Origin: Callorhinchus milii
Taxonomy: Eukaryota
DNA: 64,000 bases
Assembly: GCF_018977255.1 (NCBI RefSeq)
Contig: NW_024704742.1
Location: 54,128,001 to 54,192,000 of the forward strand
Direction: 5' to 3'
The notes under the pieces were generated by a model. That model searched no databases and had not been told where the DNA came from. It saw only the letters and a program-made list of their open reading frames with translations. The translations under genes and the position numbers were made by a program. This document shows, one piece after another, positions 15,464 through 59,865 of this stretch (its first letter is position 1; every line of letters begins with the position of its first letter).

Positions 15464-15646
<183 letters not shown>

Positions 15647-16124: not shown

Positions 16125-16439
<315 letters not shown>

Positions 16440-17070: not shown

Positions 17071-17241
<171 letters not shown>

Positions 17242-20200
17242 TAACATTGATTTCTTGGTTGCATCTTGCTGAATAGTAATGCACTTGTAAAGGACAACAT
17301 TGGCTTTACTTGTTGGAAACGACAGAAAATCTCCCACACAATTTCTTTGATGGTTGTGGAATGAAGGTGTTGAACTGGTTTCAGAATATTTATTGGAATG
17401 CTCAGCATGTTTTCAGGTCAAACGTGCTGCAAAGAAGCTTGAAGGGATTCGAATTTTCAATTTGACTCTCAGATTTGCAACTAATAAACTTTTTTAGGAT
17501 GTGATTTTACCCTGCGTTTTACACGTACAACTTCAGAATCAAGCCTGCCTCTGCTGGCAATTGTAATGAACATCAGCCGAATTTTCAAGTACTGAACGTC
17601 ACTGGACTCATTTTGGAATCAGTTATCTTGCTGCCTCCATTTCCAGAATGAAAAGGGGTCACGCCGGAATGAAAGGCTATGTGACGATGAGGCATTGCAC
17701 ATAAGTGCAAGATCTGTAGAGGTATACGCTTCCATTCACTGCGACTAAATTAACGTCTGCAGACTCTTTTTAAAAAATAAATAAAAGCTCAGGCCGGCAG
17801 CAAAGTTGCCTGAATTTCAGATGCATCTCCTGGCCTGTGCTTCTATTATTTTGGAAGAGGTAATTGAAAACTAAACTGCAAGGATTTGCGCATACACAAT
17901 GAGTCAAATGTCCTTGCACAATGTTATATTTTCCAAACATGCGCATGTGCATTGCACAAGTGCCTACACTCTCCTTGAGAAGTACGAAGATAAAGCTTGT
18001 CCATAAAAACAGAGCATTGGATTGTTAGCACCTCCAGCTCTGCATCACTGTCAGAAACCATATTATAGAATGAGCAATGGATCAGGCAGTTAAACTCACA
18101 TTGACCAGAAACCTATCGTGTTGGATTTGACCTCAACACAAGCTTGTAATTAGTAGTGGCAGTCAAGATAGCCGTTAGCAGGTCTGTATAAGATTCCTAC
18201 CTGTCAGCTGGGATATTAAACGGCAACCTAATCTACTAGATATCAGACGCTGGATATGAAATACAACAGGCTTACAACAGGTTTAAAAAATAATCTTGTG
18301 ATTTTGATTTTGCCAATCAGCCTTATCAAAATTTAATGATATATACCATGTCAATGATCTACTGTTTGAAGCAGGCTAAGAGACTTGAATCTTTGGATGG
18401 TTTGTCTTGTAAAATTTGCTTAGCAGTATTGTCTATAAATACACTTTTTTTTCTTTTCTTACTCTTGCTTCTTCCTTGGAACTTTAATTTCTGAAATTAG
18501 ACCCCGTATAAAATGACAAGCTGTGGTAAGTTTGTGAGATCCAGAAGCAGAATAGTTTAGACAATATGATAATTTTACCTCCAAACAAGGATTGAATTCA
18601 AGAGGAAACTTTACTAATACTTGTATATGAACGAATGCACCTGCTTTAGACTAGTCCATGTTTTTGAGTAGGAAATAATGTTCAGTAATGTGGAGAGTTT
18701 GAAAAATTACCTATACATGCAATGAATCACAAAGTTTAATAATTGAACATTGCACAAATAAAAACAACTGTAGATCAGCAGGAATTACTTCTTTGTCTTA
18801 TAAAAACAAGTTAAATGTAAAATAAAACCTCTTGCAGAATAATTTGATTATTCTGCAAGATAATAATAGCGTCGGCAGCTATGTGAACTCAAACCTCTTA
18901 GTGCTAATGCATCCTCCATTTAATTCAATGAATTGTCATCTGGGTTTAAGTTTAGCAGGACATGGGTTGGTGAATATATACATTTATACGCTACAGGCAT
19001 TGGAACTGATTTAACTGACAAAAATGATTTATTGTTAGTAAAGCATGTGGTTGCTAAAATCTATTCTGCTTGTACAAAAGGAAAAGAGTGTGATTAAATT
19101 GTTGCTTAAGCAAAAATGTCATTTCACACACACCCTTCTGACAATGCACTGATAGTGTTATGTGATCAGGTTTATGTATACATATTTCTTTAAGGCATTC
19201 TGAAGTTTGTGTTTGGATGAGTTACTGAGAACTGATTTGCTGAGAAGAGGGCAAAGAGGGAGAACGGGTGTGGCATTGCAGTTAGTTATTTATGCTGCAA
19301 CTATGTGTCACTGCATCAACTTTGTGGCACAAACATTGTTCATCTAATTATTTATGATTCAAGTAGTGTATCTTCACATGAAACTTGTACATAATGTAAA
19401 AAAAAACACATCTGGTCATTTCTAGGAAACAGGAAGCATTGGATGCAAATAATAAGAAATAATCTTTCCAATTGATATAATCTTTGCAATTGATACAGCG
19501 CCTTTTCATGATGAAACGCTTCAAAGTGCTTCTGTTAAGTGTAGCCAAATTGATACCAGCAAATTTCTGTACAATGTCCCAAAAATGGCCTAAGATCAAT
19601 ATTTTTCTGGATGATTGTTTGGTAATGATACTCAGGGAAAATCCCTTCTTTTAGAATAAAGTAATTGAATGGGGTCTACCTGAACCTCAAGTTAATGTCT
19701 CATCTGAAGGACAATACCTCCAGCGTTGCATCGAGTATCAGTGTGGACTGTGAACTCAAAGTCCGCACATGGACTTGAACCCATAAACTTTCTGACTCAA
19801 AAGTCAAGAAAGCTACCAACTGAGCCAGGCTATTACCTCAATGCACTGGGGGTCACATGAGTTAGATAAATTGAACTTTCAGATAATGCTAAGAAATTAA
19901 AACCAAAAATGGGTTTGATAACATTGTAAAGTACAACAAAAACAATCTGCATTGATATAGCACCTTTTACATAGGGAGAAGGTCTGCAATGCTTTGCAAA
20001 GACTGTGTGGCACCTCAAGCTGGGAGGAGTAAGTCAGCAATCGATCTTTAGATCGGTTTTATAAGTAGGTGGAGGTGAGATGACCCAGAGGGATTTCAGG
20101 AGAGAGTTGATAACAGCTGACATACTTTGTATAGATATGGAACAAATTGTTCCATGTCCTATATGTATAATTGTAAATTATGGAACAAATTGTTTTTATG

Positions 20201-23200
20201 TCGGGAAGTTCTTTCCTTAAAATACAATTTGTAGATTTCTTCTCGGCAATCAGAACCCTATCCTATTCATCTGTTATAAAAGTTATGAACTTTTTTTTAC
20301 CAGAAATTTGGTAGTGGGGATAGGGCATAAATGTCTGGTTATTGACTTGTATTCACTTTGTTTCATTTAATAATGTGTCATAAATTGGTATTCAGTTAAG
20401 GCAGATTCAGCAAGAATGACATTTTGTCAGTGCATTTGAGAGACTTCTGCCTTAAGGTACTTCTAACTTAATAGAGTTCCTACAATAAGATGTCCACTGT
20501 TAGCTATATCCCAGATCGAGAATGAAGAAAAAATAACTGAAGAACATCTCAGCCTTTCTTATTCATATTAATGGTGAAAGGTCACATTGCTAACAATTAT
20601 TTTTGTCCAACCGAACAAGGTAAACGTTTTCAGAAGCTGTACACATCTTATGAACATTTTGTACGTTACACAGTACAACCGTTATAATCCACTTTGTTTG
20701 AAGTGCTTTGAGACGTCCAGAAGACGTGAAAAGCGCTATATCAAATGCAAGGATTATTATTATTATTATTATTATAGCGCTTATTCAATTATAACATGGT
20801 TGTTGTGTGGATCCTATTTACTGCATATGCGTACAACTGGGCTTTCTGCTTCCTGCTCGCGTACCATGTACAGTGAATGAGGTCCCACTCTGCAACCAAG
20901 TTATAATATGTTTTCATGTAGACTTAAACCCTGGCTGGACAGACCAACCGGGGCGCGGGGGGAGTTTTGATTTAGAGAGCTGGAATTTCCAGCTACGTTG
21001 TTGGTACTGGCATTGTAATTGTTTGCAATTCTTCTGCTCATGGGATTCAAACAATCTGAGTCAAGGTCGATATTCCTGGCCACTAGGAAAGTCAGCAAGG
21101 ATGGTGAGGCTGCTCAGCTCTTTGGGTGAGGCGCACCAAAGAGAGTTGGGCTGGCTACAGTCTACAAGTGAGCCCACAGAAATTTTTGGTCCACAGATTT
21201 TTTTAAAAATTAATTTAGGTTTTGATCCAACTAGGTGCAAATTCCAGATACCCAATGTCCAGTAAGCAAAATGTTTGCTGGGTATATTATATGATAAATT
21301 AAAACTGAATTGAAGAATTTTCCAAAATTTACACAATCTTAAATTTTGAGACAATGCTAAAACAATGAGAAATGTTAACCTTCAAATGCTAAAATCGTTA
21401 GAAAATATTATTTTTACTAGAAATAGTCAAATTTAGAAATCATTTGAACAGTGGAGAAGGGTGGGAGCTGTCCAGAGCAATCCTGTACAGAATGTCATGA
21501 GTCAGGTTCCAATCTCCCACTTTTTTTCTAAAAGGCTTCTGGCAAATCAAGCACATTATATCAAATAAGCTACCACTTATAAGCTATAGAAGTGTAATCT
21601 TGTTGTTGTTGTACCATTTATCCATTAAATGAGTTAGTTCCTCCTTGAAATTCAGGAGAATTGTGAAGCATGAACCAAATTCCTTCTAAAACCATGACAA
21701 ATACTCCAGCTGAATATTGCTGACATCCAGTAAAAAATTCTTAATATTTCTTATTTACAATTTATGTTAGGGTAACAATTCCTCAATTCAGTCATCTCAA
21801 TTTTGTTTCAGTGTTGAAGTGAAGTTTCGCCCACAAAATACACAGTCAATCCACTTTACATAATATTGTGAAGCGCTTTGAGACGTCTCAATGTCTGATA
21901 AGGGCTATATCAAATGCAAGGATTATTGTTATTTACTATCCTCCAATTCTCAGCTCAATATCCTCTGCATATAGAGCTTCTGAAGCTATGAATCAAAGCC
22001 TCTGCTTTCCTTAAGGATTCTATGAAACATATCACCTGCAAGATTGTTGGATGATATCATAGCTGTTACCAAGATTACAAGTGCGGTTCAGATGGGCTCA
22101 GGCCCATTTGATCTCATCCTTCCAGAATACCCTCTCAACTATCCTCCTGTTACAGGAGCAAGCTATTTCTTGAATAATTCCAGTTTCTTGACTTCAACTA
22201 CTCTTTCTTGTAACTTGTTGCTTTAAATACTAATTAGATACTTCCTGGTGGCTATTTTGAAATTGCATCTGAACCTATGACTTCTTGTTCTGCTGCCTTG
22301 GCAAATCTCAACAGTACTGTTTGGGTTTACTTTCTCAATTTTGTTTAAAGTCTCATATGAAGAAGGGGACCTCCGACAATGCAACACTCCCCCAGCACAG
22401 CATTGGAGTGTCAGTTTAGACTATGTGATTCCAAGTCCTGGCCTGTGGCCTGAACCCACAATATTCTGACTCAGAGGCAGGAGTGTTACCACTGAGCTGG
22501 ATATCAAGTTTGTCTATATATTTATTGGAGCAAACAGATGGAAAATACTCATTGAACTGATCTACCTTTTGCAATCGTCTAATATAACAACAACAAGAAG
22601 ATTACATTTGTATAGTGCCTTTCACATCGGGAGGACATCCCTAATACTTCTGCTTGCACATTTCTCATTGTAGCAACTTAATCTACAGCGCATTCCATTT
22701 GTTCCATATCTGTAAATACTCCTTGAACTTCCGTTGCTTCCATGTACAATTTATCTTTCTTTTGTCATTTTAGCTTTTCTAATACTGATTTTATTTATGT
22801 TGAACTGACTTTTGTTTGACTTCCAATCTGAACCAGTTTTGTATCCTTTCTTTTAAAGCAGTTCTGTTTAGCCTGTGGGTTGTTTTTGGCCTTGTTCTTC
22901 AGTCAAAACATTCTTGGTTTTGCTATTGTTCTAATCGTGAAATTGGTTTCTGGTAATCTTTTTTTTAAAAAAATATTTTTTATTTTGCACCTTAATACTG
23001 TCTGGAATTAGGTAAGCAGGGTGTGTCCTCCAGGGAGATAGTGCACATTCTAGACATGATTTTATGCTGTGTTTCATTTTCCTTTTCCTCTGAATTAATC
23101 TGAAACTATTGATAGACAAGTCAATTCTCTTTTGAAATCGTGTACATCTATATCAGGTTGGTCCAATCTTTTGGGTGATGAGGGCCAGAATCTGGATTTT

Positions 23201-23347
23201 AGAAATGTCCACAGGCCGCAAAGCAATATTTTTGTGTTTCCCTTCCTGAAGCGTAACCAGTAAGAATCAGATAGAAATCCTTTGTTTTAAGTTGTGTTAC
23301 TGTATTGCAAACAATATCACAGCCAGGGATTAGGTATCTTTATCTGT

Positions 23348-23481
23348 TTCTCTGCGTGTCTCTCTCTGTCTGTGTATATCTCTGTATCTCTCTCCATCTG
23401 TGTGTGTATCTCCCTCTCTGTCTGTGTGTCTCTGTATCTCTTTCTGTCTGTATGTCTCTGTATGTGTCCCTGTATCTCTCT
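23348..23481. repeat. Imperfect (TC/TG) microsatellite
   Basis: tctctctgtctgtgtatatctctgtatctc... pattern seen directly. Confidence 0.9.
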
Positions 23482-23560
23482 TTAGGACCCCTATACTGAT
23501 AACTGGATGAAATGGCTTCTTTTCCTTTTTTCTTTTGGTTGTCTGTAATGTGTTGGGTTT

Positions 23561-23735
23561 ACAACAACGTCGGGCAGACGTCCCAAGGCATTGGACAGTC
23601 AGGGATTTGGACCCGAGCAGGAGGTTGGGATCAGGAGGGAATGATCTGACCCACTGATGATTTTGGATGATCTGCAGCTTGTGGAGGGAAGAGTTGGGAC
23701 TCTGAATACCCTCATGGTTATAACAATGAGTATAG
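23561..23735 (-). mobile_element. L2 fragment, internally deleted
   Basis: Minus strand reads PNSSLHKLQIIQN joined to the L2 3' end with an (aac)n tail. Confidence 0.65.
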
Positions 23736-24842
23736 TTTCTCCACACAATTGAAGGGCATAAATATTTACTGGAGGAAAATCTCAGTGGCATGGGACATTT
23801 TTTTCTCATTTGGAACGCAACTTGCTTTTTTCTGCCTGGAGGTACAAATAGGTAATAGTGGTTTCTGAATACAGTTTTGAAAAAGCAATTAAGTTGATGT
23901 TGGAAAACAGTTAAACAATAATATCTATTATATAACTGCAGTTTCTGAGGCTTACTAAACATTGTGGGGAGGCGGGTATTTAATCATGGTCTGAGTAGAC
24001 ATAATCCCATCAATTATTTATCTTCCAAAATTGCTGTTTGTTTTATTATTTTATCAAAACTACTAGTACCGTAATAACTAGAAGTCCAAAAGTAATAATA
24101 ATAATCATCCTTGCATTTGATACAGTGCCTTTCACTGGGAGGACATCTCAAAGCACTTCACGGGATTTTACAGTGAAATGTAGTAACTGTGTATTTAGTA
24201 GGCAACTGTGGCAGCCAAGTTGTGCACAGCAATGTCCCACAAACAGCCATGAATGATCAATTTTACCTGGGGGAATTGTTAGCCAGAAGAAACTCCCTTA
24301 TCTTTTGTATAGTGTAATGGGGTTTTTATCATCTGCTTAAACAGCAGACCTTTGCAATGCAGCACACCTGCAAGACATTATTAGAGTGTCAGCCTAGACT
24401 TTGTGGGTTCAAAGTCCCGACAGAGGGCTTGAACCCACAACCTTCTGACTCAGAGTGCTACTGAATCAGTTTTTCGCCCACTTTGAAGTTCCTTGACCAT
24501 TCCTTTCAGACTTCCCAATATTAAATCTAATATAACGTGTGCCGTAGACAGAATTTCGTAAAGCAGAGCAATTTCTGCACAAAATGCTATCTACTGGAAT
24601 GGGTTTCCAGGGCCATTGTCCTATGGGAACCTCTTTCATTCTGGAAATAATCTTATAAAATAAAGTCCCCTCACCACAGCAGTGAGAAGCAAGCACAGTG
24701 ACCTCTGGCAAAATATAGAGTAAATATTAAAAAAATTACGAGTAAGCCCTCGGGCTGAAACATTTTCAGATCAAATTCCACAAGAACATTAGTGCATTAG
24801 CAAATCTTTATTTTTATACATTTCTTCAATAAAAATAGCAAA

Positions 24843-25127
24843 AGGTTAGAGCACTTGCCTCGCAAGTGAGAGACCTAGGTTTGATTCCTGGCAGGGCGAA
24901 AGCTTTAGCAAGTTTCCTTACTCCACATGCCTGATAATAATCCCTCAATATAAAAAATAATAATTTGGTCACTTAATCCACGACTGTTTGTGGGACACTG
25001 CTGTGTACAATTGGCTGCCACGTTTCGCCCGCAAATATACAGTGAATTCACTTTGCAGCATATTCTGTGAAGCGCTTTGAGATGGCTAGAAGACTTGAAA
25101 AGCGCTATATCAAAATCCAAGGATTAT
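24843..25127 (+). mobile_element. SINE, short subfamily, slightly 5'-truncated
   Basis: Same head, core and tail as the 5363 copy. Confidence 0.85.
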
Positions 25128-28041
25128 TTGTTCAATTAAAAAAAGAACTGTGCACCAAACCTTACTTTAAAATGTCTTTAATATCTTTATGTCCGATAAA
25201 TTAGTTTTGTGTTCTTGGTAATAAGATTAATTAAAATGAGCATTTTAAAAGAACCAGCCTTTTTTTAAAAAAAGTCCACACTTTAAAATGGGTATTTGTG
25301 ATTCTTTTATTAAAGCTCTCCCTGAATTGTATTGCTATGAGCGAAAGTGTGAGTAAGCAATATGCTTTCACTCTCTAACACTAATCTTTAAGATAGTCAG
25401 AATTTTGCAAAGCAGAATAATTTCTGCACTCTTGATCAATTGATTGATTCGTATGACCTGCAATGAGACATATGAGACACCTCTGCTCAATGCTTAACAA
25501 TTTGCCACGCAAACAATTATCAGCAAGTTAAGTGTTCTGTAGAGTTTTGAGTAAACTGGAGAGTGCAGTGGGTAGGGAATGTCGAGTGATACAGCAAGCC
25601 ATCGTTTCCAATTGAAGAATAGGAACTCCATTTTATGATCAAATCATATACTGACATTGTATTTGTGCCTGAGTTTATATTTGATGAATACTGCAGGAAA
25701 TGTGTTCATTGAAAATACATGTCAAAACACTGCAGTAAGTATTTTGGGGGGATTAAAGAGTTGAGCTGTAATTTGCGGTATTAGCTCATTCTAATCATGT
25801 CTATAACATGTATTTGAGATTCACTGCAAAAGTTACAATTAAAAAAGGATTTTTAAAAATATGCAAACTATAAAATAATTGAAGCTCAAGAAATACATCT
25901 TGTTGTGGTCTTTGCCATGGTATTGTCCTGTCTGGGCTCTTTGCTTTCTTTAGTGGACCAATAACCTGGTTAGTGATTTATTATGAATCAATCTAGTGCT
26001 TCACACTGCCTTTTCCTGATTTATTTCCAGAGGTATTGTGGAGCTGCTCAGCAGAACATTATAACCTGTTGCTTTGTGTCTTATCATATGTTTAATAATT
26101 AGGTGAATTTACTGCCCATTTTTTTGATAATGACATACAGTGAACATTAATTAGTACATGTTCCTCTGTTTCCCTCTTGCTTTTCTGAACAATTAGCTAT
26201 TTACATTTTCTGTTTGAGCTGCAGTATTGGTGGAAATCGCTTGCCATTTATTACAATTTCTCGGTGTACTGCTTCTACCATCTTATCCAACTGATAGCTG
26301 CCAGGTCCGCCCTTGTCAGCAGTGCAACTCCTCAGGTCTGTGAAGCGAGATACTCTTTCAGAGAACTCCGGTATATGATTAGCACACAACCAACAACAAC
26401 TTGCATTTATGTAGCGCCTTTCAAGCGGGGTAGAGTCCTGGTGCACTTCACAGTGGCTTCACACAACCATATTCCACTGATACCACGAATGTTTATATTT
26501 CTCCAAGGACCTATATCTCTAGTTTCAATTGTTTATTTCTAACGCTCCTTGAAATAATATAAAACAGTTTAAGCTCATATTGGAGAACTTCCCTCTTCCC
26601 ACCCCGCCCAATTTATCTGTGTACATTTGCCATTCAGACTTTTTTTGAATGTCTGAATGGCTATAGTAAACTGCTGATAACTCAACATATGCTTAATTTG
26701 CCACAACCACTTGAATTATCATGCGATCAATATCCTGGCCACATTTATTTATGTATTTATACATATACCTAACCCTCCTCTCCTGATAACTCGTAACTGA
26801 GCCCTTTTACTTTGGAACGATGAGTAATCAGGAGTTCACTGTAATTATATTTCCTTTCCACTCTGTCAGCAATAACTATTGGCTCATTCATTTCACCAAA
26901 TTATTAAGCTCATTTTTGTTACATTTCTGGATACACTTAATTTTTTGTAATCACAGTTATTTCATGGAACATTAACATTTTTGTAGCAAGGACAGCAATA
27001 TTCTGTGCTAAAAGCAGCTTATTTGTAGAATCGTACGTTTAGATTTAAATCTAAATCCTGAACAAGGGAATATGTTCTTTAGTTCTTCATGAACAACCTG
27101 GTAGGTTGCCACAATACTAAACACATTACATGAAGTGGTAGTGCCCCACTAGACAGCTGTGTAATGAGGAGCTTCACTTGATGTAACCAGTGAACTCAGA
27201 TTCCTGATATCAACGACATTGCTTTAAAGCAGAGCGCCATTTGTTACTGACATACAAAGCTTGATTAATGATATTGTCATCTTAAAGGACAGAGAAGGTC
27301 AGTACGGGAAGGAAACCAGCACTAATCATAAGAATTATATTGATTGATTGTATCTCACATAAATATGAGATGTAAAGGACAAACATGTACATTACACCAG
27401 GCTGTGTAGATTCGGACTCAGAATAAATACACATCCATCCAATTGCCTGGATTTCATGTGTCTTTGTTCTTTTACATTCTAAAGGCATAAACTGCAGATT
27501 AAGAGCCGTCAACTGAATGGGGTTTTATAACAAACTGCCGGGCAGAAACTGTCATTTTAGGCTGTAATAGATATAAAGCACAGGTGAAATCAAGAGAAAC
27601 AAACCATTACTTCAAAGCGTAAACTGTGATTTTACAAGATTCAAGTATCGTGCAGATGCAAAAAGATGCATTGCGACATCCGGGTTTGCTTTTCAGCTTG
27701 GATGGAAACGTTACCTTTGATGATATTTCTGACAGATTAAATTATTACATATAGTGGAAATGAAGAACTGTATTTTTTTAGCTAAAACCTGGGCTAATAG
27801 AAAAGTGCGGAAGTATTTGTTCAAAATTGCGGGGAGATTTGGAAATTGCAGGAGTTTCGTTAGCGCCATTGAGGTACATTTTACTGCCAACCTACATTTT
27901 TTCACTTTATTGATAAAAACTTGACATAAGGAAATAACACATATTAGATTGTTGCAAAAAAAATACTTGTTTAACATAAATTGAACTTTTTTTGGGGGGG
28001 GAGGTGGGGGGGGAACACCAGCGAGGCTACAGGAACGAAGG

Positions 28042-28516
28042 AGAGACACGCACACAAACATAGAAAGTGATACACACACTCACAGGCACAGAGAAAGACA
28101 CAAACACTCAGACACAGAGAGACACACATTCTCAGAGAGCAAGACACACACACTCATAGATACAGAGATATACACACAAATACAGACAGGAGAGACACAC
28201 ATACACATTCACACAGACACTCACAAACACAGAGGGACATACACAGACTCACAAACACACAGAGATACAGACTCACAAACACACAGAGAGACACACACCG
28301 ACACTCACATACACAGAAAGACACAAACACTCACAAACACAGACACACACACAGACGTTCACAAACACAGAGACACAGCCACTTACAAACACAGAGAGAG
28401 AGACACACAGACAGTCACAAACACAGAGACATAGACAGTAACACACACAGAGACACATGCACAGACACTCACAAACACAGACACACATCCAGACACTCAA
28501 AACACAGACACACATC
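28042..28516. repeat. Long imperfect (CA/GA) microsatellite
   Basis: ~470 bp of cacacagagacacaaacactca-type units; source of the Cys/Val-rich ORF artefacts. Confidence 0.92.
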
Positions 28517-29060
28517 CATGTGCTTTTACCACCCAACAACAGGGTTACCTCACTCACTATTTTATGATTCCTTTCAATTAGCTTCCAGTCCAACTGAACT
28601 AATGTGACTGCCCTGGATCTAAGCGTGTGTGGAACTGCGGCTTGCTGACTGATCACCACTCTATTATTTTCTATTGCTGCTGCTTCTCCGTCATCACAAA
28701 GGTGACAGCCGGTTCAGTTGGTAGTCGTCTAACCTTCTGAGTCAGAAGGTAACGGGTTGAAGCCGCATGTCAGAACTTTAAGCTCATAGTTTAGGCTGAC
28801 ATTCTAATGTCAGAGATACTGTCCTTCAGATGTGATGTTAAACCGAGGTTTGGTTCTGCTGAGTGTCCTCTGCCCTCTTCCACCTCACTATCAGTTGCCA
28901 AGTCTTCAGTAACTATGACCCCACCTTCTGGAAATCCCTACTTCTGCCCCTCCATCTCGACCCCCTCCCCAACTGTCTTTAAGTTCTGCCTAAAAATCCA
29001 TTTCTTCAACTACTTCTATGGTCATCTCCCCAACTCAGAATCCAACTCCATCTCTGTATT

Positions 29061-29240
29061 TAATAATAATCCTTGCATTTGTTTTAGTGCTTATCACGTC
29101 TTCAAGACATCTCAAAAGTGAATCACAGAATATACTGTAAAGTGAATTGATTTTATATTTTGTGTGCGAAATGCGGCAGCCAATTGTGCACAGCAGTGTC
29201 CCACAAACAGTCGTGGATTGAATGACGAAATTATTGTTAT
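29061..29240 (-). mobile_element. SINE 3' half, inserted in an L2 3' fragment (~28860-29295)
   Basis: (taa)n tccttgcattt...cccacaaacagtcgtgg; L2-like sequence (ccccaccttctggaaatccc; ggtgctatataaacacaagttgttg) lies on both sides. Confidence 0.75.
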
Positions 29241-29344
29241 AACGTTCCAAGATGTTATCCTAGGTGAAGGGTGCTATATAAACACAAGTTGTTGTCACAC
29301 ATTGTGAGTGAGAGTTGTGGAATGCATAGAGAAGTACTGTACTT

Positions 29345-31620
29345 GTGTTCAATGTGCCTATTTGTAGTGGCATTAGTGTTCACTTCGAAAGGTTCGGCTT
29401 GAGATTGGGGTACCAAGTAGTTGAAAGGCCTTTGGACCCAAAGACAAATAGTGCATGTGGTGTGGCCCTGATCATTGACCAGAACCTGCTGGCAGTGGTA
29501 ATGGGAGTGTGCGCTGCTAATCTCATCTGGGAGAAGATACTCTTTAGGGGATCTGTCCCCTGGCTTGTGAGATCAAGGTGTACATTCCCCAAAAGCTGCA
29601 CGGTGCTGAGCACCGGGGGATCCTTAAGGCCGTGGGCACCTCACTGGATAACTTTGCACAACCGTTCTCTGACTGTCCGTTGCTCCTTATGGGAGATTGG
29701 AACATGTCGAAACCGGAACTTCAAAGGTGGAGCTAGACTCTTTGACAGTGATGATCCCCAATTACATGGCATCAGGGTGGAATGCACAATGGAACAGCAA
29801 TCGATCACATGGTGAGTGGATCGGCACATCTTATTCTCTCCAATTGCATTGTTCGACTTCGCTGGGAAACCTCTGACCACTGGCCAGTCATCTTCAGTGT
29901 CAAAAGGGCAGCCCTTGGTGTTCTAGAGCGAAGTGCTGACCCTGTGATACGGGGTGATTTGTCAGGTTGGAGCTGTAGGCTGTGCCTTGTGCTAGGAGTT
30001 ATCGTACCAAGGTACTCCAGCACGAGATGGGTATTGCCAGACATGAAGCCTGGAACCAATTCTTTGTGCAGGCTGACAGAGTGGACTTGACAATTGATGA
30101 TATAGCCAAGGACTTTCTTGCTTCTGTAGCTGAGGTTGTAAAGAAACTGAAGCTGCAGACTGTAACACACCCATCTCGGAAGCTGGACCTGGTCATGGTA
30201 ACGATAAAGGGAAGGTGAGCCATTAGGTGAAAGCAGAAAGCTTTTAAAGCAGTTGTGGAAGTTTCCTCGAAGCTACAACTGCAGCAATTGCAACTTATGA
30301 CCATGAAGCTAGGAAAGTCACCAGAGAAATGAAGCGTATTCAATGGGCTGTGTCACTCCAAAAGGGAGTGCAGTTGGACAATGATGATCTTAAATCTTTC
30401 TTCCTCTGGCTAAAGTCTATTGTTGGCCATGGCCGGAGGGGCACCTCTGGGCCCATATTAGTATTGGCCAAGACTGGTGTTCTCCAAGTATCCTTGCGGT
30501 CTGGAGGAAACATTAAGCAGAGTTGGTATCTGTCCCGACAGGCAGTAGCAGAAACTCATCTACAAGGAGACTGGAAGAGCTGGCGGCAGACGTCGGCCAG
30601 ATTGAAGGGCTTTATGACCCAATCCGCTGGGAGGAGATGGACTCCGTATTGCGGTGTCTTGCCAATGAGAACTGTGAGGATCTTATATGTCCAAGCCAGG
30701 AATCTCCAACTCGCCTTGGAGCTGCCCTCCTAGCACTGGTCAGCAGGATTTTCTCTGAGGCACGCACCCATCAGTTTTCCAGAGTGCAATTGTGGTGTCT
30801 ATCCACAAGAAGGGTATCCCTCTTGAAACTGATAACTACAGAGGGATCTCACTGATTTCAGTGACTATTAAAGTGGTGCTTCGGGTAGTCACTGCATTTA
30901 TATCATTCATTGGAGGCTCGTGGTTTGATCAAGAAGGAGCAGGCTGGCTTCTGTTCTCATGAAGGACAGGTTCATTGGTAGAGAATGACCTAGTGCCTCA
31001 TGAGACCCTTATAATGAAACTGGGAGCCTTGGGAGTACATGGTCGAATCCTGGATTTTATCTGGAATATGTACTCCAGCTCCAAGATCCATGTAAGGGTT
31101 GACAGCAGACTGACTGAGCCCATCCCTCTGGAAAGGGAGTTAAGTCAAGGCTGGCTATTGTCACCCACCCTGTTCGATGTGTTCATTAACGATGTGTTGG
31201 ATGGCATTGAGGGGGAAGGACTTGGTGTATCTGGTCCAGGCCTCTCTGACACGATTTCAGCACTTATGTTAGAATGTGGTAATGTGTTGCTGCAGACTCA
31301 CGTGGGGATCTTCTGCACTGCATCCACCATCTTGAACAGTGGGACATGGTGGTAGGCTCCCCCAAGTATGGAATCATGGTTCTGCATGCCCCAAGGGAAG
31401 ACATTGAGGGAATTGATTGGAAGATATAAGGGGCATCAATCCCAATTATTGACTCTTATCAGTACCTCAGGGTTGTGGTGGACACCAACTTCAGCCTGGA
31501 CACTGTGCTGAAGGACTGCACTAAGAAGGGGCGCCAGGCACTCTGGTCATGCTCATCCCTCTTCCAAGAACAGCAAGGCCTCAGTGCAGGTTAAGCTTGT
31601 GCCATACAAGACCTGTGTGC
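29345..31620 (+). mobile_element. Degraded non-LTR retrotransposon ORF (AP endonuclease + reverse transcriptase), not L2/CR1; clade unassigned
   Basis: Across frameshifts: EN motifs GVAL, KVYIP, LLLMGDWN (~29680-29703), IDH (~29800), SDHWPV (~29872); RT motifs HKKG..DNYRGISLIS, EQAGF, DLVPH..KL..GVHGR, SQGWLLSPTLFDVFIND, IPIIDSYQYL. The catalytic F/YADD motif is destroyed. Confidence 0.88.
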
Positions 31621-31621
31621 A

Positions 31622-32117
31622 AATATCTATATGCTCTCTTTGGGTGTTATCATCCACAGACACGGGATAAACGTCCACATGTATGCGGATGACACACAAA
31701 TCTACTTTGCCTCCTCCAGTACCAACTCCAGGTCTGCAAATATTCTATCAACTTGTCTGGCAAACATCAGAGTCTGGATTAGTGCAACTTCCTGTAGCTG
31801 AATGTGGACAAGACGGAAGCCATACTCCTCGGCTCCCATCAACATCTTCAATCCTATGAATCTGAATTCCAACCTCCCTGGTCTCTCCCTCAGATTCACC
31901 GAACCGGTTGCGCAATCTAGGCATCCGATTCGACCCCCAGCTGTCCTTCCTCCCCACATCCGGTCCTTGACCAGAACTGTCTTCTTCCATCTCCACCACA
32001 TTGTCTGCCTCCGACCGTACCTTACCCCAAATGCAGCCAAAACCCTTGTGTATGCATTTGTCTCCTCCCAAATGGATTGCTCAAAACGCATTCCTCGCTG
32101 GTCTCCCCAGTGCCACT
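31622..32117 (+). mobile_element. L2 RT fragment
   Basis: IYMLSLGVIIHRHGINVHMYADDTQIYF, LNVDKTEAILLG, RTVFFHLHHIVCLRPYLTPNAAKTLVYAFVSSQMD. Confidence 0.88.
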
Positions 32118-35100
32118 AAATTCATTCCTGCTGCTTAAATAGTGACTGCTACAGGCCTCAAATCATAAACATCCAGCAAAGTTTTCATTTTTCTGAGTGT
32201 ATCTGAGAGACTTTAGTGTAGGAGGAGCAGTAAGTGGCTGAGAGAATTCTCTGAAGATTGACATTTCAAACCTTAATGGTCTCAACGCATGCACGCATGC
32301 ATAATAAATTATCGTTTTGGATTATTTGATTTGTAGTTCATGTTTGCTTAAATTTGAGTTTTGTTTGCTGTTTTTGAATGTGTTGGTTTTAAAATGGATT
32401 TGTCAGCTGTTATGCTTCACTGAGGAAGTACTCTATGCAGCCAAATGTATGCAGAGACAGAACAGAATTGGTTACCACACATGAGGCATTCAAAACTCAT
32501 CTTTCTCAAGGGACCAATACTCGTACATATTGTATTCTTATTTGTTTAAACATGTGCAAGTAGCTATTAGTTTCTAATTCACATAGCCGTGCGCTATTTA
32601 TCCTATCCTTTAAAATGTTTTCTATGCACTCATTGTCGCCCATGCGATGATCAAAATGCTTCAGAATTAGGTCATTGCAAAATGATTCACACAGTGTAGC
32701 ATCATGATCCACTCCCGGCTATGCTGTCCTACTAGACAATTAAAAAAAATCCCTGCAGTTCATATAATATCTTTTATGTTGGGAAAATGTCTCAAAGCGC
32801 TTCACAGAATTTTTACTGCAAAATATACTGACAATGTGTTTTATAAATGAAAACAGAAGCCAATTTGCTTCCCACAAAGCAGTGTCCCACAAAGAGTCAT
32901 GACGTGAATGACCAATTTTATCTAGTGGAAGGTTGGCCAGGACACCAGGACAAACTCTCTTTTCCAAAAGTGCCACTGAACATACAGACAGAATCACAGT
33001 TTAACATTTCATTGGCAGGACCGATGAGGGATTGGTATATAGCCCTTATAACACTAAAGTGACATACTGTAACTTTAAATATCAAGGATTGAAAAATACA
33101 ATAATAAGTATTGTGTCAAATCTTTTATGAAATGTTGCATATCTCCAAACGTTCCTGGATGTACTATGAAATTTGATAACTGTTTTCTTTCCTCCCTTCC
33201 CCCAACCATGACACAGTGGTTTGGTTGTAAGGTTGATTTCAAAATATTTGTCATTGTCATTTAGACTACTGCTCAGCAGCCCTGATTTCCTTTTTCAATC
33301 CTAGAGCCAGCACTTGAATGCTGCTTGTCAGGACACCACTGGATAGAAGTTCTACCTGGGTCTAGATTTACTCTTTATGTAGCTTTTTAGAACATCTGGA
33401 ATTTGGAAAATTCTTAGCCCCGGCTTTAATTTTCAGGCCAGTTTTCTGTGAGTTTTTTCTAAGAACTATAGAACACTTTGTCTTAAAAAATAAGACTGAC
33501 TTCCAACAGTTACCTCCAAATGCTGAGTTTCATGGTCAATGGAACAGCAAAGTAATGGAGCAGCCATAAAGAAGAGAATTCTATTAAGGGACCAATCACT
33601 GTATTGGATCTGGGTAAGGACGATCCTCCTTTCTCTCACCTCCCTTACTACACATAGTAGTTGGCCCAAACAACTGTCTGCATCATTGCTGCTCACGATC
33701 ATAGAAATAATTTTGAATGCAGATGTAAATAGCACTTAGCACTTCTTGTGGGTGTTCAGTTCCACTGCCAATCTTTTTGAATGGAAAAATGTGATGTTCC
33801 AGAACAGTTTTGATGTAATAACATGGAATCTGTTAAGAAACGTCTTATTTTTCATTACAATATTGCAATTTACCAGCTGTGAAACACAATAAAAAAAACA
33901 AATTTTCGGTACTCCTGATGTCTACTGCACTCAAACGCTGTTGCTTTGTTGTGCTTGATCATATTGCTGGTGGGTGAAAATGTTTGAATTTGGCACATGG
34001 GATCGAGAGTGTAGCATCTGCAAAAAATAAATGTCATGGATCTAAAGAACACCAGAATACATACCAAAGCAAAGGTTATTTATCAATTAGCCAATCAGTA
34101 GATAGTTCTCCATTTTAAAGCTCTCAGAAGAATAAAGTAAACTTCACATAAGTTGTATTAGTTGGGACCATACATTTAATACGACTTATGCAAAGTATGA
34201 GTTATGTCAAACTTGCATAAGTCATATCATATATGACTAATGTAAAGTTATGTATAAGTCAGATTTTATATGACTTACACATGACAAATACACTAGTACT
34301 GAATTGACTGGTGACATTACGGCAAGGTTTCAAAATGGAAATTTTCCAGATTTCCAATCATTTTCCGGATCAACCATTTTCATCTACTTATTATCTGTAA
34401 ATGTTTCATTTTAGTGTTCATGTTACTGTTCCTGATTTTATTGTATTTTTCTTACAGTGTGAGATGTTACAAATTATTGAAGAGTTGAAGGGGAATGTTA
34501 AGTGCACACCTAATTGTCTCAGTTATAAAGAGAGATACGTGTAGCCTTATAATTTTCACAGCTGTCAGTTGGTGGAAATCTGAAAGAGGGCAAGTGAGTG
34601 CAGCACTGCTCTTGGAGCCATGAGGCTGTGCTCCAGTCATGACATGAATAGGAGGAGATCCCATTCTTAATACACGGAGAAGGGTCCCCCTCACTTTCCA
34701 TGTGATCAGGTGATGCGGTTTCCTCTCTCAGCCCCCTACCCCCGCTGCTGTGCACGATGAGGTTGATGTTATGTCCCAAGGAGGGCGCGAAGAGAGTCGA
34801 GGTGCAGTGTTCCTTTTGAGGTAGGCCCAGGAAACAAGGTTTTAGCTGGTAAGTTCGGTAGCAGCAAGGGCGGTGCAAGTTGCGTGATTGTTAATGCAAT
34901 TAGTGCAGATAAATTTAAGTGTATTTGAGCAGATATAGGACTTAGGCAATTAGACGATTCATACAGATCAGACTTATGCGAGTATTACTGGTTCAATAAA
35001 CTTGTCTCTTTTGTGCCCGATGATGATAAGGTCATCGCACATTACTTGGATGTTCTTACTGAATCATTGTTAGCATTTCTGAAAATAATTCAAGTGACTG

Positions 35101-38100
35101 GAAGGAAATGTAAATGTCAGTGGGATCAAAGGGACACAATAAAGTGATTGACTCTACCAAGCAAGGCACCAGTAATGAAGGAATGCACCTTGAAGTTTAT
35201 GACTTACTGATAACTTGGTGGCACTGACTTAAGTTCTGAAACTCTTCAGAAGGCAAGATCACCTTCTTAGATACTGACCAAAACCTATGAAAGATTTATC
35301 TCAAAACAAAATATTTAATTTCTTAAACAGTTCATAAAAGAGATTGTTAAATATTAATCTATATCAACGAGTATTGGCCTAATTTCTCAACTAATTTCCT
35401 GCCTAGATCCTTTAGAAGAGCTCTTCTGTGCTGTCTTTTCTTTAATAATTTTAATTATTTTGACATTTCAGACTATAATAAGATTACAGGAGAGGCAAGA
35501 GTGAAGACCTTTCATTTAATCTTATCTTTCCAGATTACTTACCTTACACCTTTTAATTTTTTTTGGTCAGCTGGATATCGCGCACGTAGAAACCCATCAC
35601 CATGTTTAGGAATAGCCAAATCAGGCTGAGAGTTCCACATATGGATGCCATCTACACATAGACATTTTCCTGGGTCTGCAATAGAATGTGCACTCTCCCC
35701 CTAGAGGGGAAATGTACAGTTTACTTAATTCTGAAGAGTATTAGGTGCAGGTTGGTGAGAGCCAGGGCTAGGGGACCCCAGAATGTGCTTTGGAGTACTT
35801 CTGGAGTTCAGCTCGCTAAAACTCCATATCTTCCATTTAAAGCATTGTTTACCAAGCTTCCCACTGTTAGTCCTGCGAGGATCACCCTACCTATTAGAAC
35901 TTTTACTTGCAGCATTAACTGCAGCCAGGTGGCCAGTCTCCTCTCCAAGTCCCTCTGCCGAGCCAGGCTGGTTGATTTTCAATCAGCAATGCCCTGGAGT
36001 ATTGCAGGCCTCCTGGCTCAGGAACCAGATGACAGAGACTGCCAGAGAGAGTTGACTCAATTCTGGTAGACAACATGTCATTGATTATGTAAAAGAGAGC
36101 TAAATAAACTGCTCTTATATCTGTCAATTGTACTCTACAACTAAGCTTAAGAGCAGATGTGTAAAGAACGATGTGCTATACCTCCTAATGGAGATTGTTT
36201 GCCCTTTTGACTTCCCATCCAGGACATCACCACATTGAGAATCCAAATTGCAAACTCACAGCTTGCTGCCCTGCGGTCTATGTTCTACACCCAATGTATT
36301 TAAATTCTAATCTAAAAGGTTTAATCCATACTTTTTGAAAAATATTATCTTAAAGAAGGAAATGCACATTTAAAATGTTTTATTTCTCCAAATCAAATAT
36401 TTTTTTATATAAAAGCGTTCTTCTGGGTCATTCACTGCAGTCACTGTTTCAAAATGTGATACTGCATATGCAAATTAAAGGAACTCACTACAGTGTTCAT
36501 TGAAATGTATTAAGTGAATAAATGACAGATGACTGAATGATCATTCTTCTGAGGTAAATGTGGTTGTATTAATGTGTCTTTCCACTTCATGTGAATGAAG
36601 TCTACTATCCAAGTTATGTAAACAATATGTATTATATACCTTACTGCACTGGCAAATATAGGTGCTCTTAATTATGTAATTAGAATATAATGTTCTCATT
36701 GTTAGTTGTTTCTTTAAGGGCACCCTGTAATTCTCCCTGTACACATGTGATTGAATATGGATTACATATGGCCCATAAGAAAACTTATGTTTGGACATGG
36801 TTTGCACAAATAGCATAATGTGGATACCATGGTTAGCTTTACTGAATACATCAATGCAATTAAAATTTACATATATATATATATATATATCATCCCTTTC
36901 GCGTCAGGAGGACATCCAAAGGCAATGCAGTTAAGAGCAAATTTGTGGAGATACAAGGGTGAAGAGAAGAGAGGGGAATTGGAGAGAGTATGAAGATGCG
37001 TGGAGGCATAGACTTTTGAGTTGAATGGTCTGTTTCCATGCTGTAACATTCACTATGTATTCTATATGCCTTTTACCAAAATTCAATGTATAGATGGACG
37101 ATTTGTGCAAAAGAGGTCACTCATTTGAACATTACATGGTACAGATCATGCTTATTTTAATACCTTGATGACCTCACTCGAAGTATACACCTTTTGTGCT
37201 TGTGACATTGCTAGCTTTATGTATTGTTGGGTTAGAAAATCAGTTGACTCTATAGAGCAAATTAGAGTTACAATAAGTTTTAGAATTTGTAAATTTTTCA
37301 GTTTTGAAATCTGGAATATCTTCATTGTTAAATTGAATCGCAGTGCGATTCAATTTAACAATGACATTCAATTTAACAATAACATTTGTCTGTATTCTTA
37401 TCAATCTCATGCAAATTCAATGTTAGTGCTCGACTACAGATGTGTGATCAAATGATGTATTGTTTCTTAAAGGAAGAACTAGCAACTACAGAGTCTTCAT
37501 AGTCTAGGAGTGTAGCATTTTATCTGCCTTTTATATGCTGTCTAGCTTTCTATATTTAGATTTTGTTTTGTTCCAGCAATGGTACTTTCCCAGCAATCAC
37601 TGACTTTTCCCTGCATGTTTCTGTCTCTTTGTTCTGATCCTGCATGGTGAGTTCCTTTCTCCTGGATGTCTCTGGTCCACAGTGTTTCTTTCCGAGCTGC
37701 ATCCCTACCTTGTGCACCTGCAGTAATAACGTAACTATTCATTCACATGCTGTGTATTTTGTTATAATTATTTCCATGACATTTCTCAGATTGTTTGCTT
37801 AATGACTTTCATAAAACCTCTCTAATTAGCCATTAAGATAAATTGAGCTATTCTGTTGATCAATAAACCAGTAAAATTGCTTCACATATGCCAAAATCAT
37901 ATAATCTAATTAATAGTTAATATATTAATGCTAAAGTTCGACCATTATTTAAAATTGCAGAAACTAATCAGGAAAATAAGCTGAAAGGAAGATTAGGTAA
38001 TATGGTATACAGATCTGTAGGACAGAAATAACAAACTAAAAGTAGACAAATAACACAGCCTGCTGACAATCTGCTATGAAACGATAAAATGTGAATTTGT

Positions 38101-39019
38101 GCCTGCAATTTCCTCATAGCAAGTTTCTGATCTTGGTTGTGCCAATAGAGGAAGATACCAAGCCTCAGCAGGGACTTGGCTGACAGTTGTCCCATCACTC
38201 CAGGATACTCTCACAAACCTCCAATTGGTCAAAAACACATTCACATTGGCAGAGGCTTGTGAGCAGTTTATGTGCCCGTACTTGGCAGGAGATAGAACAC
38301 GATATGGAAAGTTCTGAAAATAAAATCACAAAAGTAAGAACAAATGGGGATTGAAAATTTGCAAAATAATAGTTTTGTGGAAAAGGTTCAAGAGAAAGGA
38401 AAGAATCGTTTACTGAACTGCCAAAAATGTTAATTTCTCCTTGACCTTCAAACCTTTTTTTTTATCTTCACTAAGCAGCTGATTTGCCCCAAGTGCCTCA
38501 TTCCTTAAATCACATAATTTACATGTAAATTGCAAAATAAACAACATTGAATTACATACAGGTGTCAGCCTGGCTCAGGCGGTAGCACTCTTCCCTATGA
38601 ATTAGAGACTTCCAATCTGGACTAACCCTAACCCTGCTCAGGTGAATGTGAAAGATCCCATGGCACCATTCAATAAGAAAAGGAAGTTTCTTACTAGACA
38701 ACAATCCTCCACAAAAAAATTAATCATTCACTTAAAGGCTGTTTGTAGGACATTGTGTGTGAAAATTGACTCCGAATACCCAGTTACATTCTACAGAAAG
38801 CTTTGTGAATCACTTTCAAATGATTAATTGTTATAGTTGCTACATCAAATGCAAATCTATTTTTAACATGACTACTGTGTGTTACTGTTAGACGGATGTT
38901 TGGGTGGATGGGATGAGATTATTTCTTGGAACATCCACAGCAGTGAATGTAAAGACAACTATAAGTTGGGGTGAACAACCTGAGGCTTATAAAATTAGGA
39001 AGTATAAGTTTTATTGTAG

Positions 39020-39375
39020 AGTTTTTGTAGCTCAGTGGTTAGAGCACTCATCTCGCAAGCGAGTAGACCTTGATTCGATTCCCAGGAGGACGAAACGTTG
39101 GATAAGTTTCCTTACTCCACTCACCTCCGTTTACCTTGTAGTAGTAGGAACCCAGTTCATAGTCAATTGGCGGATTGCTTTTCCGGAGGTAATAATCCTT
39201 TAAGAAAAAAATACTTGCTACCTCAATCCACGACTGTTTGTGGGGCACTGCTGTGCGCAACTGGTTGCCGCGTTTTGCCCACAAAATATTCGGTCAATTC
39301 ATTTCACAGTATATTCTGTGAAGTGCTTTGAGACATCTCAAAGACGTGATAAGGTGCTATATCAAATGCAAGAAG
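39020..39375 (+). mobile_element. SINE, long subfamily
   Basis: tagctcagtgg head, extra segment ctccgtttaccttgtagtagtaggaacccagtt...gattgcttttccgg, standard core and tail. Confidence 0.85.
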
Positions 39376-40324
39376 TCTTATTGTTATCAGTTAAAAGGAG
39401 CTGAGTTGAGTATGGAAGTGTTTACCTAGAAGAGAAATAAAAGAAATCACCACGTCCAGTCTCACATTTTTTAGCTCCTGAATGGCATTGTCAGGCATAA
39501 GAACAGGTCTGCTGTGTCTGTTGACTAGGAAATGGGGTATGGGGATAAGGCAGACAGTGGGTTTGAAGCGCTAACCTTGCTCTGTGAGCCGGTGCAGACT
39601 TGATGGGCCGAATGACCACCTTCTGCACTATAGATTTCTATGTTTCAATGTTATTTCCACCACCAAGAGGGTTAAATACAGCAGTATTAGGAACCCAGTT
39701 GTTATGTGCCATGTCCGAGAAAGGCCTTTGCTAGAACAGGGCTCCTACGCTGATGGAGTATTAATTTGTGAATATAATGAAATGTGTCACTTTAAGATTC
39801 TGTTTGCTATATGATCATACACAACCTGATTCTCAATGAAAGAATTGCTTATGCGTTAAGACTCCATTTTCACACATGCAAAAGATTTGTATTCACCAAA
39901 TGTTTCCGTTCTCCATTTTCCCCCCTTTTTTTGCTGTTTTAAGAGGCTCTATACCCTTGTGAGATTTGGTTTGTTCAGTGACTTTCTTCAGATGAAACAT
40001 TTGTGCAGCAAATATTGGTTTTGTTCTTACTAGCTTCTAAATATTTGCTGTCAGAAGGATTTTTTAATTTAGCACCATTCAAAATGCTGGATGCAATATT
40101 GTGTAAGAATGGGACCAATACAGAGATGGGCTGAATGGCCTTTTCTAATTCTTCACAAATTATCTCAGCAGAATGCCTGACCTTCAAATTATTCACTCCA
40201 GCAGTTTCTTATCGGTGTATCTCTATGCATACAACAGTGTGGTCATATCTACATCTGACTAGAGCTTGAATCTTTACCCACAGAGCTATCAAAGAAGCTT
40301 ATTTCTGTTTTATTTCTGTTTTTT

Positions 40325-40644
40325 GTGGAGTCCTGTAGCTCAGTGGTTAGAGCACTCACTTTGCAAGTGAGAGATCCGAGTTCAATTCCAGGCAGGGCGA
40401 AACCTTGGGCAAGTTTCCTTACTCCACACGCCTAATAATAATCCCTCCAAAAAACAAAAACAATAATAAATTGGTCATTTTCAATCTACGACTGTTTGTG
40501 GGACATTGTTGTGCGCAATTGGCTGCCGCGTTCGCCCACAAATATACAGTCAATTCACTTTACAGTGTGTTCTGTGAAGCGCTTTAGGACGTCCTCCCGA
40601 CGTGAAAAGCGCTATATCAAATGCAAGGATTATTATTATTATTA
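40325..40644 (+). mobile_element. Young SINE, full length, with imperfect TSD
   Basis: Flanked by ttttatttctgtt (40308-40320) and ttttatgtttctgtt (40645-40659). Confidence 0.92.
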
Positions 40645-41606
40645 TTTTATGTTTCTGTTGCTCAGTATGTAGTACTTAATAGTTCACAGATTTTTATTTC
40701 CCATATAACAAGTGAATTGATGTGAATTTGTATTCAATATTGACCTTTTCTGGCCAGTTTTAGAAGTGGACTTACTCACTGCAGTCATGTTTATTCTAAC
40801 AATAAAGATAATGCCAGTATCAGTGGTATTACAGCATATCCAGTTTCTCATTGCTTGTTCTGACGGGTATGTAGTGCAGAGGAGGTGGGGAACAGTTGAT
40901 GATAAATAACATGCAACCCAGAAGGTAAACTTGCATTGATGTTGCTGATTCAAATGATTAATGCAGGCCCTTTCCCCAGCTGTGTATATGAAATAAATTG
41001 TGTTCTTTCATCTGTCTTAGATAGCTCATGTTTTTTTTCAACAACAGTTTATATCTATATAGCGCCTTTCAAATCAAGAGAATATCTCAAAGTGCTTCAC
41101 ATGCCTGACTGCTGGAAGTTCAGTATGGGAGACGTTGCTGGGGAGGTAGAGACAAAGATTTATGGGGCTCCAAGATGCTATCCTAGGTGCCTGGAATGTT
41201 ATGTAAAATAAGTTGTTGTGTCCGAAAGTATGGTTGTGTTTTTTGAATGTGTTTTTNGAAGGCGGGAGGGGACAGCCTTAGACAGCTGATCTGCCATATT
41301 GAGCTGTGTAATGCCTAATTTATACTGCAAGTTTCAATGATTACAGCAGAAAAATAATTGCTCCAGATCGTCTTGTAAAACTCAATAGAAATCAGGTATG
41401 AGATGCTTGTTCACAAAGTGATTTAGGCTGGAGCTCAGATTCTGAGAACCTCTTATGGAGGTGTTCTCACCATCACATCGATATACAGGGTTGCAATAGA
41501 GAATCGATCAACAAAATCAATTTGGCCTTTCCCAAAAATATTGTCTTAAAAGTTATTGGTCAGTCTCTAATAATATTAAAAACAATGTCGCTTATCCACA
41601 GGACTT

Positions 41607-41927
41607 GTGGAATCCTGTAGCTCAGTGGTTAGAGCATTCGCTTTGCAAGCGAGAGACCTGAGTTCAATTCCAGGCAGGGCGAAACCTTGGGCAATTTTCC
41701 TTACTCCACACGCCTAATAATAATCCCTTCAAAACCAAAAACAATAATAAATTGGTCATTTTCAATCTACGACTGTTTGTGGGACATTGTTGTGCGCAAT
41801 TGGCTGCCGCGTTCGCCCACAAATATACAGTCAATTCACTTTACAGTGTGTTCTGTGAAGCGCTTTGGGACGTCCTCCCGACGTGAAAAGCACTATATCA
41901 AATGCAAGGATTATTATTATTATTATT
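41607..41927 (+). mobile_element. Young SINE, full length
   Basis: Near-identical to the 40325 copy; (tta)n tail. Confidence 0.92.
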
Positions 41928-42254
41928 GGCTAATCTCCACATGTACACAACTTTCCTCAACCCATGGAGAAAGCGATTTTGAGCAAAAGATGTAAATCTA
42001 ACTGAACACAGAGTGAGAGTAAATGCTTGCATGAGGAGAAAGGAATATGAAGTATGGGAAAGGGGGTTGGAATGGATGGAGGCTCATGTTGGGATGAATG
42101 GCTGGTTTCTCTGGTGTACCTCTGTAATTATATGTCACTCTTGTTTCATTCTGATTACAGCAAATTAGAGCATATGTACTTGAGTATGACTTCTGGGTTT
42201 CTGAGCTCAACTGAGCAACCAGTCAGCCTTGTTTATTGTTGCCTCATACTGTTT

Positions 42255-46733: not shown

Positions 46734-46770
46734 TAAGGCACTATATCAAATCCAAGGATTATATTATTAT
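46105..46770 (+). mobile_element. Older Deu-type SINE interrupted in its tail by the 46484-46733 insertion
   Basis: Head ..agcactcttgtctctgagtcagaagg.., core ttgtgggatattgctgtgcgcaa, tail split as gcgctttgagaca | taaggcactatatcaaatccaaggatta. Confidence 0.75.
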
Positions 46771-59600: not shown

Positions 59601-59865
59601 TTGATTTGACATTTGATTATCAAGCATGTCAGCTTGAACTCAGCTCCAACGAAACTCCACTTAGCACTCCACCCAAGAAGGATAGTAACTAGTTGGTCAT
59701 TTGACATCCGACAAGCACAGGTTTGAGCCCTCACTAGATGAATGGCAGGTACCAGGAACTCCCTGTGATTTTCTTGGTGATCAGCACTGCTCAGCATGAA
59801 ATGTGTGTGAACGTTCCTACCATCTTCTGCCCACAGCTCGAATTGGGATTGGAATAGATAGTATA

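Follow-up and report, generated by a model that had tools for sequence, protein, structure and literature searches.

Setting of the element

The window (the whole 64,000-nucleotide stretch of DNA analysed here) carries six coding exons of an OST3/OST6-family gene, an identity that is supported by a Pfam match and by a match to human MAGT1 (E 7.9e-18); we take it to be TUSC3 or a TUSC3-like gene. The gene makes the host a vertebrate; the SINE/L2 load would suit a cartilaginous fish, and the 0.9 Gb of contigs in each run might be expected of a compact genome. One intron of this gene harbors the remains of a LINE, closely flanked by other repeats (Table 1). The RT fragment adjoining the remains on their 3' side, which we assign to L2 from its motifs, reaches a depth of 17,000-128,000 in run X2. 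For the SINE on the 5' side, the depth near 29068-29204 is ~3.2 million, as compared with ~10 for single-copy contigs.

A tRNA-headed SINE family is present throughout the window in many copies on both strands, with six Rfam tRNA matches, and is presumably of the Deu-domain type. Two of its copies (40323-40650 and 41605-41930) are 98% alike over 197 nt and lie 1281 nt apart, possibly as the result of a recent local duplication or conversion. The window also features an inverted repeat (45839-46026/46546-46733; 188 nt, 97% complementary, spacing 519 nt) and further RT fragments at 6990-7660 (+) and 42651-42752 (-), which from their motifs we take to be of L2 and CR1 type.

Table 1. Positions of the element, its parts and its neighbors in the window
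Feature	Position	Strand	Remarks
Six coding exons, TUSC3/MAGT1-family gene	~420-490, 6570-6690, 15490-15620, 16180-16325, 17101-17190, 61462-61525	+	
Host intron, 44.3 kb, OST3/OST6-family (TUSC3/MAGT1-family) gene	17191..61461	+	holds the element in sense orientation
tRNA-headed SINE copies	5361-5700, 8327-8660, 9035-9290, 24822-25140, 39021-39390, 40323-40650, 41605-41930, others	both	
Very high-copy SINE fragment	29060..29240	-	just upstream, where the 5' part of the element would be
Decayed apurinic-like endonuclease (APE) region	29290..29915	+	GDWN and SDHWP retained, Glu of first motif lost
Linker	29916..30760	+	family motifs FFLWLK, TGSSRN (family: TGHSRD), PIRWEE, PTRLG
RT core	30761..31400	+	RVT_1; ~22-codon deletion, FADD destroyed
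RT end and thumb start	31401..31620	+	element ends at 31620
FFLWLKS	near 30400	+	six-frame translation
DPIRWEE	near 30619	+	six-frame translation
QESPTRLG	near 30698	+	six-frame translation
VVSIHKKG..NYRGISLISV	near 30792-30860	+	six-frame translation
KEQAGF	near 30935	+	six-frame translation
LGVSGPGL	near 31220	+	six-frame translation
IPIIDSYQYL..KKGRQAL	31440-31545	+	six-frame translation
L2-type RT fragment (presumed)	31622..32110	+	RVT_1 E 2.8e-04; abuts and truncates the element

Anatomy and decay of the window copy

A frameshift-aware alignment to a profile built from 22 relatives traces the dead copy over ~29290-31620 of the plus strand, the extension as far left as ~29290 being weak and that edge uncertain. 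The alignment ran on into the adjacent L2, and this over-run was trimmed before later analyses. Upon six-frame translation, APE, linker, RT and thumb are found to be collinear in the order typical of LINEs, and every segment quoted in a preliminary description of this DNA, which had placed them in order across frameshifts, is indeed present. The endonuclease lies 5' of the RT on one and the same strand, as in APE-type LINEs. Pfam matches the endonuclease only at E 0.17 (Exo_endo_phos_2) and the RT at E 4.7e-07 (RVT_1, 30963-31352). Run against the uncorrected six-frame translation, the family profile matches three stretches, 29575-29913 (67.7 bits), 30987-31256 (90.5 bits) and 31298-31573 (52.5 bits).

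The damage is extensive. Ten frame changes and nine stops fall within the span, although four of the stops are clustered at 29734-29752 and may stem from local indels. The deletion near 30984 takes out the first catalytic Asp of the RT, and with the loss of FADD the catalytic aspartates are gone; a short deletion has also struck the site of the QxGFxxxxEC motif, leaving EQAGF..E and GQV. Even so, 44 of 73 invariant family columns are retained in the frameshift-aware alignment. Both ends of the copy are lost: the N-terminal RRM-like and C-terminal knuckle regions that characterize its relatives (see below) are absent, as are the C-terminal ~330 codons and the tail, and the missing 3' third is found nowhere else in the 64-kb window. 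Given the stops, the frame changes, the deletion in the RT core and the loss of FADD, the element cannot be active; judged by its sequence, it is an inert intronic fossil that gives no sign of function.

Composition and copies in the host species

The preliminary description had remarked on a GC content above that of the surroundings, and rightly so, the element having 49.0% GC as opposed to 38.8% for the window and 45.9% for the highest other stretch of 2291 nt. GC content was nevertheless dropped as a mark of foreign origin, because the adjoining L2 fragment is equally GC-rich (49.3%). The CpG depletion of the element (observed/expected 0.30) resembles that of the host window (0.34).

The same description called the element single-copy. 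This holds within the 64-kb window, where no second copy was found, and fails for the species as a whole, in which many diverged copies exist. The locus is present in five of 13 listed public runs; these five come from two studies of one species. The other eight, under the same species label, share almost no sequence words with the locus, which is not taken as evidence. When contigs from four of the five runs were compared with the element at 80% likeness, each study yielded contigs that match stretches of the locus with 0-2 differences, and the left edge is bridged by three such contigs, at single-copy depth. The single-copy flank has a depth of 8-16. In run X2 the summed depth is 37-433 over the 5' part of the element, 622-1241 over the RT and 2488 at 31397-31533; the number of contigs per listed site is 8-24 for the 5' half, as opposed to 21-83 for the RT and thumb. 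Consistent with the behavior of a LINE, then, the copies are dispersed, and by contig depth in run X2 their 3' parts are commoner than their 5' parts. As summed contig depth is not copy number, we put the family at dozens of copies in the species, and likely at least a hundred. Among the 15 listed paralog pieces, the median divergence is 14.7% and the range 12.7-16.9%, values above 20% being censored.

These data bear on a rival reading, in which the element is a parasite-derived contaminant or assembly chimera, or else an ordinary L2, CR1 or RTE copy decayed beyond recognition. The right junction near 31620, bridged by none of the listed contig pieces, speaks for such a reading. The recurrence of the locus in five runs of two studies, the single-copy contigs across the left edge, the many decayed paralogs, the host-like CpG depletion and the rejection of placements outside the family described below (RELL/KH; tblastn) make an explanation of this kind very improbable. 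Because the locus is accompanied by dozens of paralogous contigs that are 13-17% different, the element represents an old host family rather than contamination, one that has been amplified within the host lineage.

Relatives and phylogenetic placement

The RT piece of the element retrieved 21 long proteins, with a best identity of 39%. The top protein match, P0001, was in turn compared with 1.84 billion representatives; its best 150 matches are mostly 1200-1500 aa long and 31-44% identical, apart from one fragment at 55%. Clustered at 50% identity, the family so defined has 150 clusters or more. Profile scans yielded 80 loci each from metagenomes and MAGs, and 141 of these 160 had enough RT for a tree; among the 19 left out, the score favors the family over outside rows for two (L007 and L107). 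ESM Atlas matches are RT-family clusters. Neither the 108-347-aa proteins (RT piece) nor the 199-2000-aa proteins (endonuclease piece) held a closer relative, each of these being weak evidence; 69 pattern matches in viral contigs included no relative, plasmids gave two weak matches only, and between the element and the 160 loci there is no extended DNA match, just stretches of 31 nt and 61 nt. Since the collections searched are centred on prokaryotes and metagenomes, the lack of vertebrate matches carries no meaning.

A FastTree analysis of 330 rows places the element in a clade of 196 (the element, 179 proteins and 16 loci; SH 100), and a quick IQ-TREE run on 85 rows recovers the same clade with 99 SH-aLRT. 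On the other hand, a tree holding the family together without the element was not rejected by the AU test (p 0.748, the free tree being suboptimal), and for this reason 117 placements were tested on a fixed 60-row tree using FastTree likelihoods and RELL. The element falls inside the family in 99.3% of RELL draws, on its stem in 0.7% and outside it in 0.06%. The stem position, as sister to the whole family, is 6.4 lnL worse (KH p 0.10), while the best placement outside is 18.3 lnL worse (KH p 0.012; 17.0 by IQ-TREE). IQ-TREE likelihoods agree for 113 of the 117 placements.

As the read-through used here had been fitted to the family profile, an unfitted tblastn comparison on raw DNA was added. 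The 195 family rows give best scores with a median of 86 bits versus a median of 47 and a maximum of 82 for the 134 others, a contrast favored by the sampling, most family rows having been gathered via P0001, the element's own top match. The L2 pieces of the window prefer rows outside the family in the same comparison. The endonuclease, which is independent of the tree data, tells the same story: GDWN, SDHWP and a TGHSRD-like segment, which mark the endonuclease and linker of the family, are all present in the element, SDHWP being found in 100 of 195 family rows and 2 of 134 others. The family endonuclease profile scores the element at 111.6 bits on the fitted read-through and 67.7 on one raw frame, the 134 outside rows reaching at most 62. 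The family rows themselves carry an EEC motif in 160 of 195 cases, versus 1 of 134 others.

By these sequence comparisons, the RT of the element belongs either within a family of environmental single-ORF LINEs or on its stem. The phylogeny thus recovers a clade, whereas the exact place of the element inside that clade is not stable between analyses: a sister pairing with P0001, P0047 and P0048, seen in two trees, was dropped because neither the placement test nor a 720-column comparison reproduced it. The claim of an APE-RT LINE relic distinct from the local L2/CR1 load is thereby upheld, outside placements being rejected and the L2 pieces scoring best on other rows. An assignment to L2/CR1 or to RTE was tried and set aside, given that the RT groups with neither set of rows, in both cases labelled by motifs, for RTE rather than by named Repbase references. 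We are confident that the element is a dead member of a LINE family that is old and multicopy, is not L2/CR1 and has its affinities with a large single-ORF family that appears to be under-described.

Anatomy of intact relatives

Environmental contigs show what an intact member looks like: a single ORF encoding a predicted RRM-like domain, APE, RT and a zinc knuckle. Each of seven intact loci has one ORF of 1299-1553 codons; any upstream ORF is under 50 aa in six of the seven, within the 215-884 nt of upstream DNA available, and a poly(A) run lies 132-375 nt past the stop in five. A C-terminal CxxC..H..C (CCHC) knuckle is found in 153 of 156 long proteins.

The N-terminal domain was matched in 126 rows (e.g., L083:501-761), in frame with the endonuclease, and has no Pfam match. 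Its model (pLDDT 92) has four strands and two helices, and the best structural matches are RRM and related folds (Z 10.2, rmsd 2.4, 76 aligned), with RRMs making up the majority of the top 50; a Foldseek search taken by itself has no match for the domain at E <= 0.001. We infer RNA binding from this predicted fold, which is a common one. The full-length model of P0001 (pLDDT 92) finds its best fold match in L1 ORF2p (E 1.2e-38). From this match and the RRM-like fold, we propose that the family would work like L1, via target-primed reverse transcription, the difference being that a module for RNA binding, comparable to ORF1, is part of the same reading frame.

Hosts of the relatives

The loci assigned to the family lie on short contigs of MAGs or metagenomes, and the sample titles, where informative, name ruminant gut, marine or human gut samples or environmental bacteria. 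We read the contigs as eukaryotic contaminants. Many GTDB MAGs carry eukaryotic LINE contigs (L081-L160); Sedimenticola MAGs account for 17 of them, and several long-read MAGs carry LINE contigs of Mb size; such contigs are likely host contamination.

One locus (L004) is especially informative, in that an intact family member adjoins an HD-domain gene (10936-11850) whose four introns, 28-31 nt long and including one GC-AG, splice to an open frame of 260 codons. Gene structure of this kind points to a compact protist genome, presumably Blastocystis-like. All four ruminant-gut MAG contigs lie inside the family; they are AT-rich (GC 30-33% in the three measured) and open in the standard code, a combination that we assume to fit anaerobic gut fungi. 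The traceable members thus belong to microbial eukaryotes, and we infer hosts of the same kind for most relatives.

A fungus or protist might not have been the direct source; this vertebrate may instead have acquired the clade from an animal carrying it, such as a parasitic invertebrate or an invertebrate eaten as prey. LINEs of the RTE group, BovB among them, do move between animals (PMC3905857), and the hosts of the P-series proteins may include animals. Among LINEs from MAGs that we read as mollusc or sponge symbionts, however, 0 of 41 fall inside the family, so no animal-derived member is at hand. This control is small and comprises 43 loci from few hosts, with host labels that are our own reading (two titles name the host); the two loci left out of the tree score better outside the family. 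A route through another animal thus seems improbable.

Origin of the family

LINEs are thought to be mostly vertically inherited. Descent of this element by that route would make it part of an old branch of the family that belongs to animals. Such a lineage of the RTE/RTEX group, so far under-described, would have been retained in a slowly evolving vertebrate line and lost or overlooked elsewhere, and is perhaps already in Repbase or Dfam as RTE-X or RTE. Its long terminal branch, with no close relative, fits such a history, as does the unrejected stem position, and the data searched took in no animal genomes. The literature lends further weight: RTEX includes vertebrate L4, L5 and ALINE among 32 Repbase clades (PMC5753468), and patchy-looking vertebrate LINE clades, RTE-X included, are often anciently vertical, one RTE-X fossil being of gnathostome age (PMC9004415), so that RTEX traces in vertebrates are ancient. 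Against this stand the absence of presumed animal LINEs from the family, though the search patterns were derived from the family alignment, the 99.3% of RELL draws inside the family rather than on the stem, and the lack in the relatives of the separate ORF1 of RTEX. We regard purely vertical descent as rather unlikely.

The explanation we favor, at a probability of roughly 45%, is an ancient horizontal transfer, in which a microbial eukaryote was the source and the germ line of this vertebrate the recipient. More specifically, and more tentatively, an unnamed fungal or protist LINE clade with an RRM fused to APE-RT in one ORF may have crossed kingdoms into the cartilaginous-fish germ line and been amplified there to at least a hundred copies. 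The source would have been a single-ORF LINE of 1200-1500 aa (RRM-like, APE, RT, CCHC; mostly with poly(A)); after transfer into the germ line of an animal long ago, amplification would have left mostly 5'-shortened copies subject to neutral decay, and the window copy would later have lost its 3' third, where the L2 fragment now sits. Counting against transfer are the distance of any donor, the best identity between element and family being 31% over 720 columns (40-42% in the RT), the shifting position inside the family, the sister position to the whole family, which is unrejected (AU p 0.748; KH p 0.10), the small size of the animal control and the published cases in which patchy-looking clades proved anciently vertical (PMC9004415). 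The resemblance to LINEs of early-diverging fungi and microsporidia suggested in the preliminary description is borne out insofar as the element groups with a family having traceable members in microbial eukaryotes. The metagenome- and prokaryote-centred data searched show no close donor and speak neither for nor against microsporidia, and a parasite vector would be conjectural.

Vertebrate LINE superfamilies are listed in PMC4350176. Chytrid LINEs (PMC9926174) and brown-algal LINEs (PMC12477816) have been labelled RTE-X (LINE/RTE-X in the former case). Microsporidia have few LINE families, and the transfers shown for them involve DNA transposons (PMC4202319). A fungal preprint surveys transfer within fungi and calls cross-kingdom transfer open, the transfer surveys it cites covering animals only (10.1101/2025.06.16.659975). 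We found no paper naming a single-ORF RRM-APE-RT-CCHC clade; Repbase, Dfam or published supplements may already list it as RTE-X. If true, our preferred reading would mean microbe-to-vertebrate transfer of a non-LTR retrotransposon, and a vertebrate LINE family that nests among microbial-eukaryote elements would offer a directly testable cross-kingdom case. Even without transfer, the known range of vertebrate LINEs would gain a lineage from this seemingly poorly described family.

Comparison with known LINE systems

The L2 and CR1 pieces of the same intron are likewise APE-type LINEs, with other RT motifs. RTEX resembles the family in combining APE and RT and in its NYRGISL and QxGFR motifs, and in the 85-row IQ-TREE analysis the family shares a fork of unresolved order with rows that we read as RTEX-like from their motifs. 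The relatives nonetheless form their own long-stemmed clade with the EEC motif. Whereas RTEX has a full, separate ORF1, that of RTE being rudimentary (PMC3905857), the relatives have none and carry an in-frame RRM-like domain in its stead.

RTE elements (BovB, Expander) are like the family in having APE and RT in one main ORF with ORF1 rudimentary or absent, and are prone to horizontal transfer (PMC3905857). A separate ORF1 is similarly absent or rudimentary at six of seven intact loci. Rows bearing the classic RTE motifs make up a clade separate from the family, and the relatives carry a CCHC knuckle (153/156) and poly(A) (5/7), neither of which RTE is known to have.

The closest structural parallel is human L1. 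Its ORF2p, for which solved structures exist, is the best full-length fold match of a relative, spanning EN, RT and the C-terminal domain, and a poly(A) tail is common to both, even though the two proteins are only ~16% identical. In human L1 the RRM is encoded apart, by ORF1, unlike in the family, where the RRM-like domain is fused to the endonuclease and RT.
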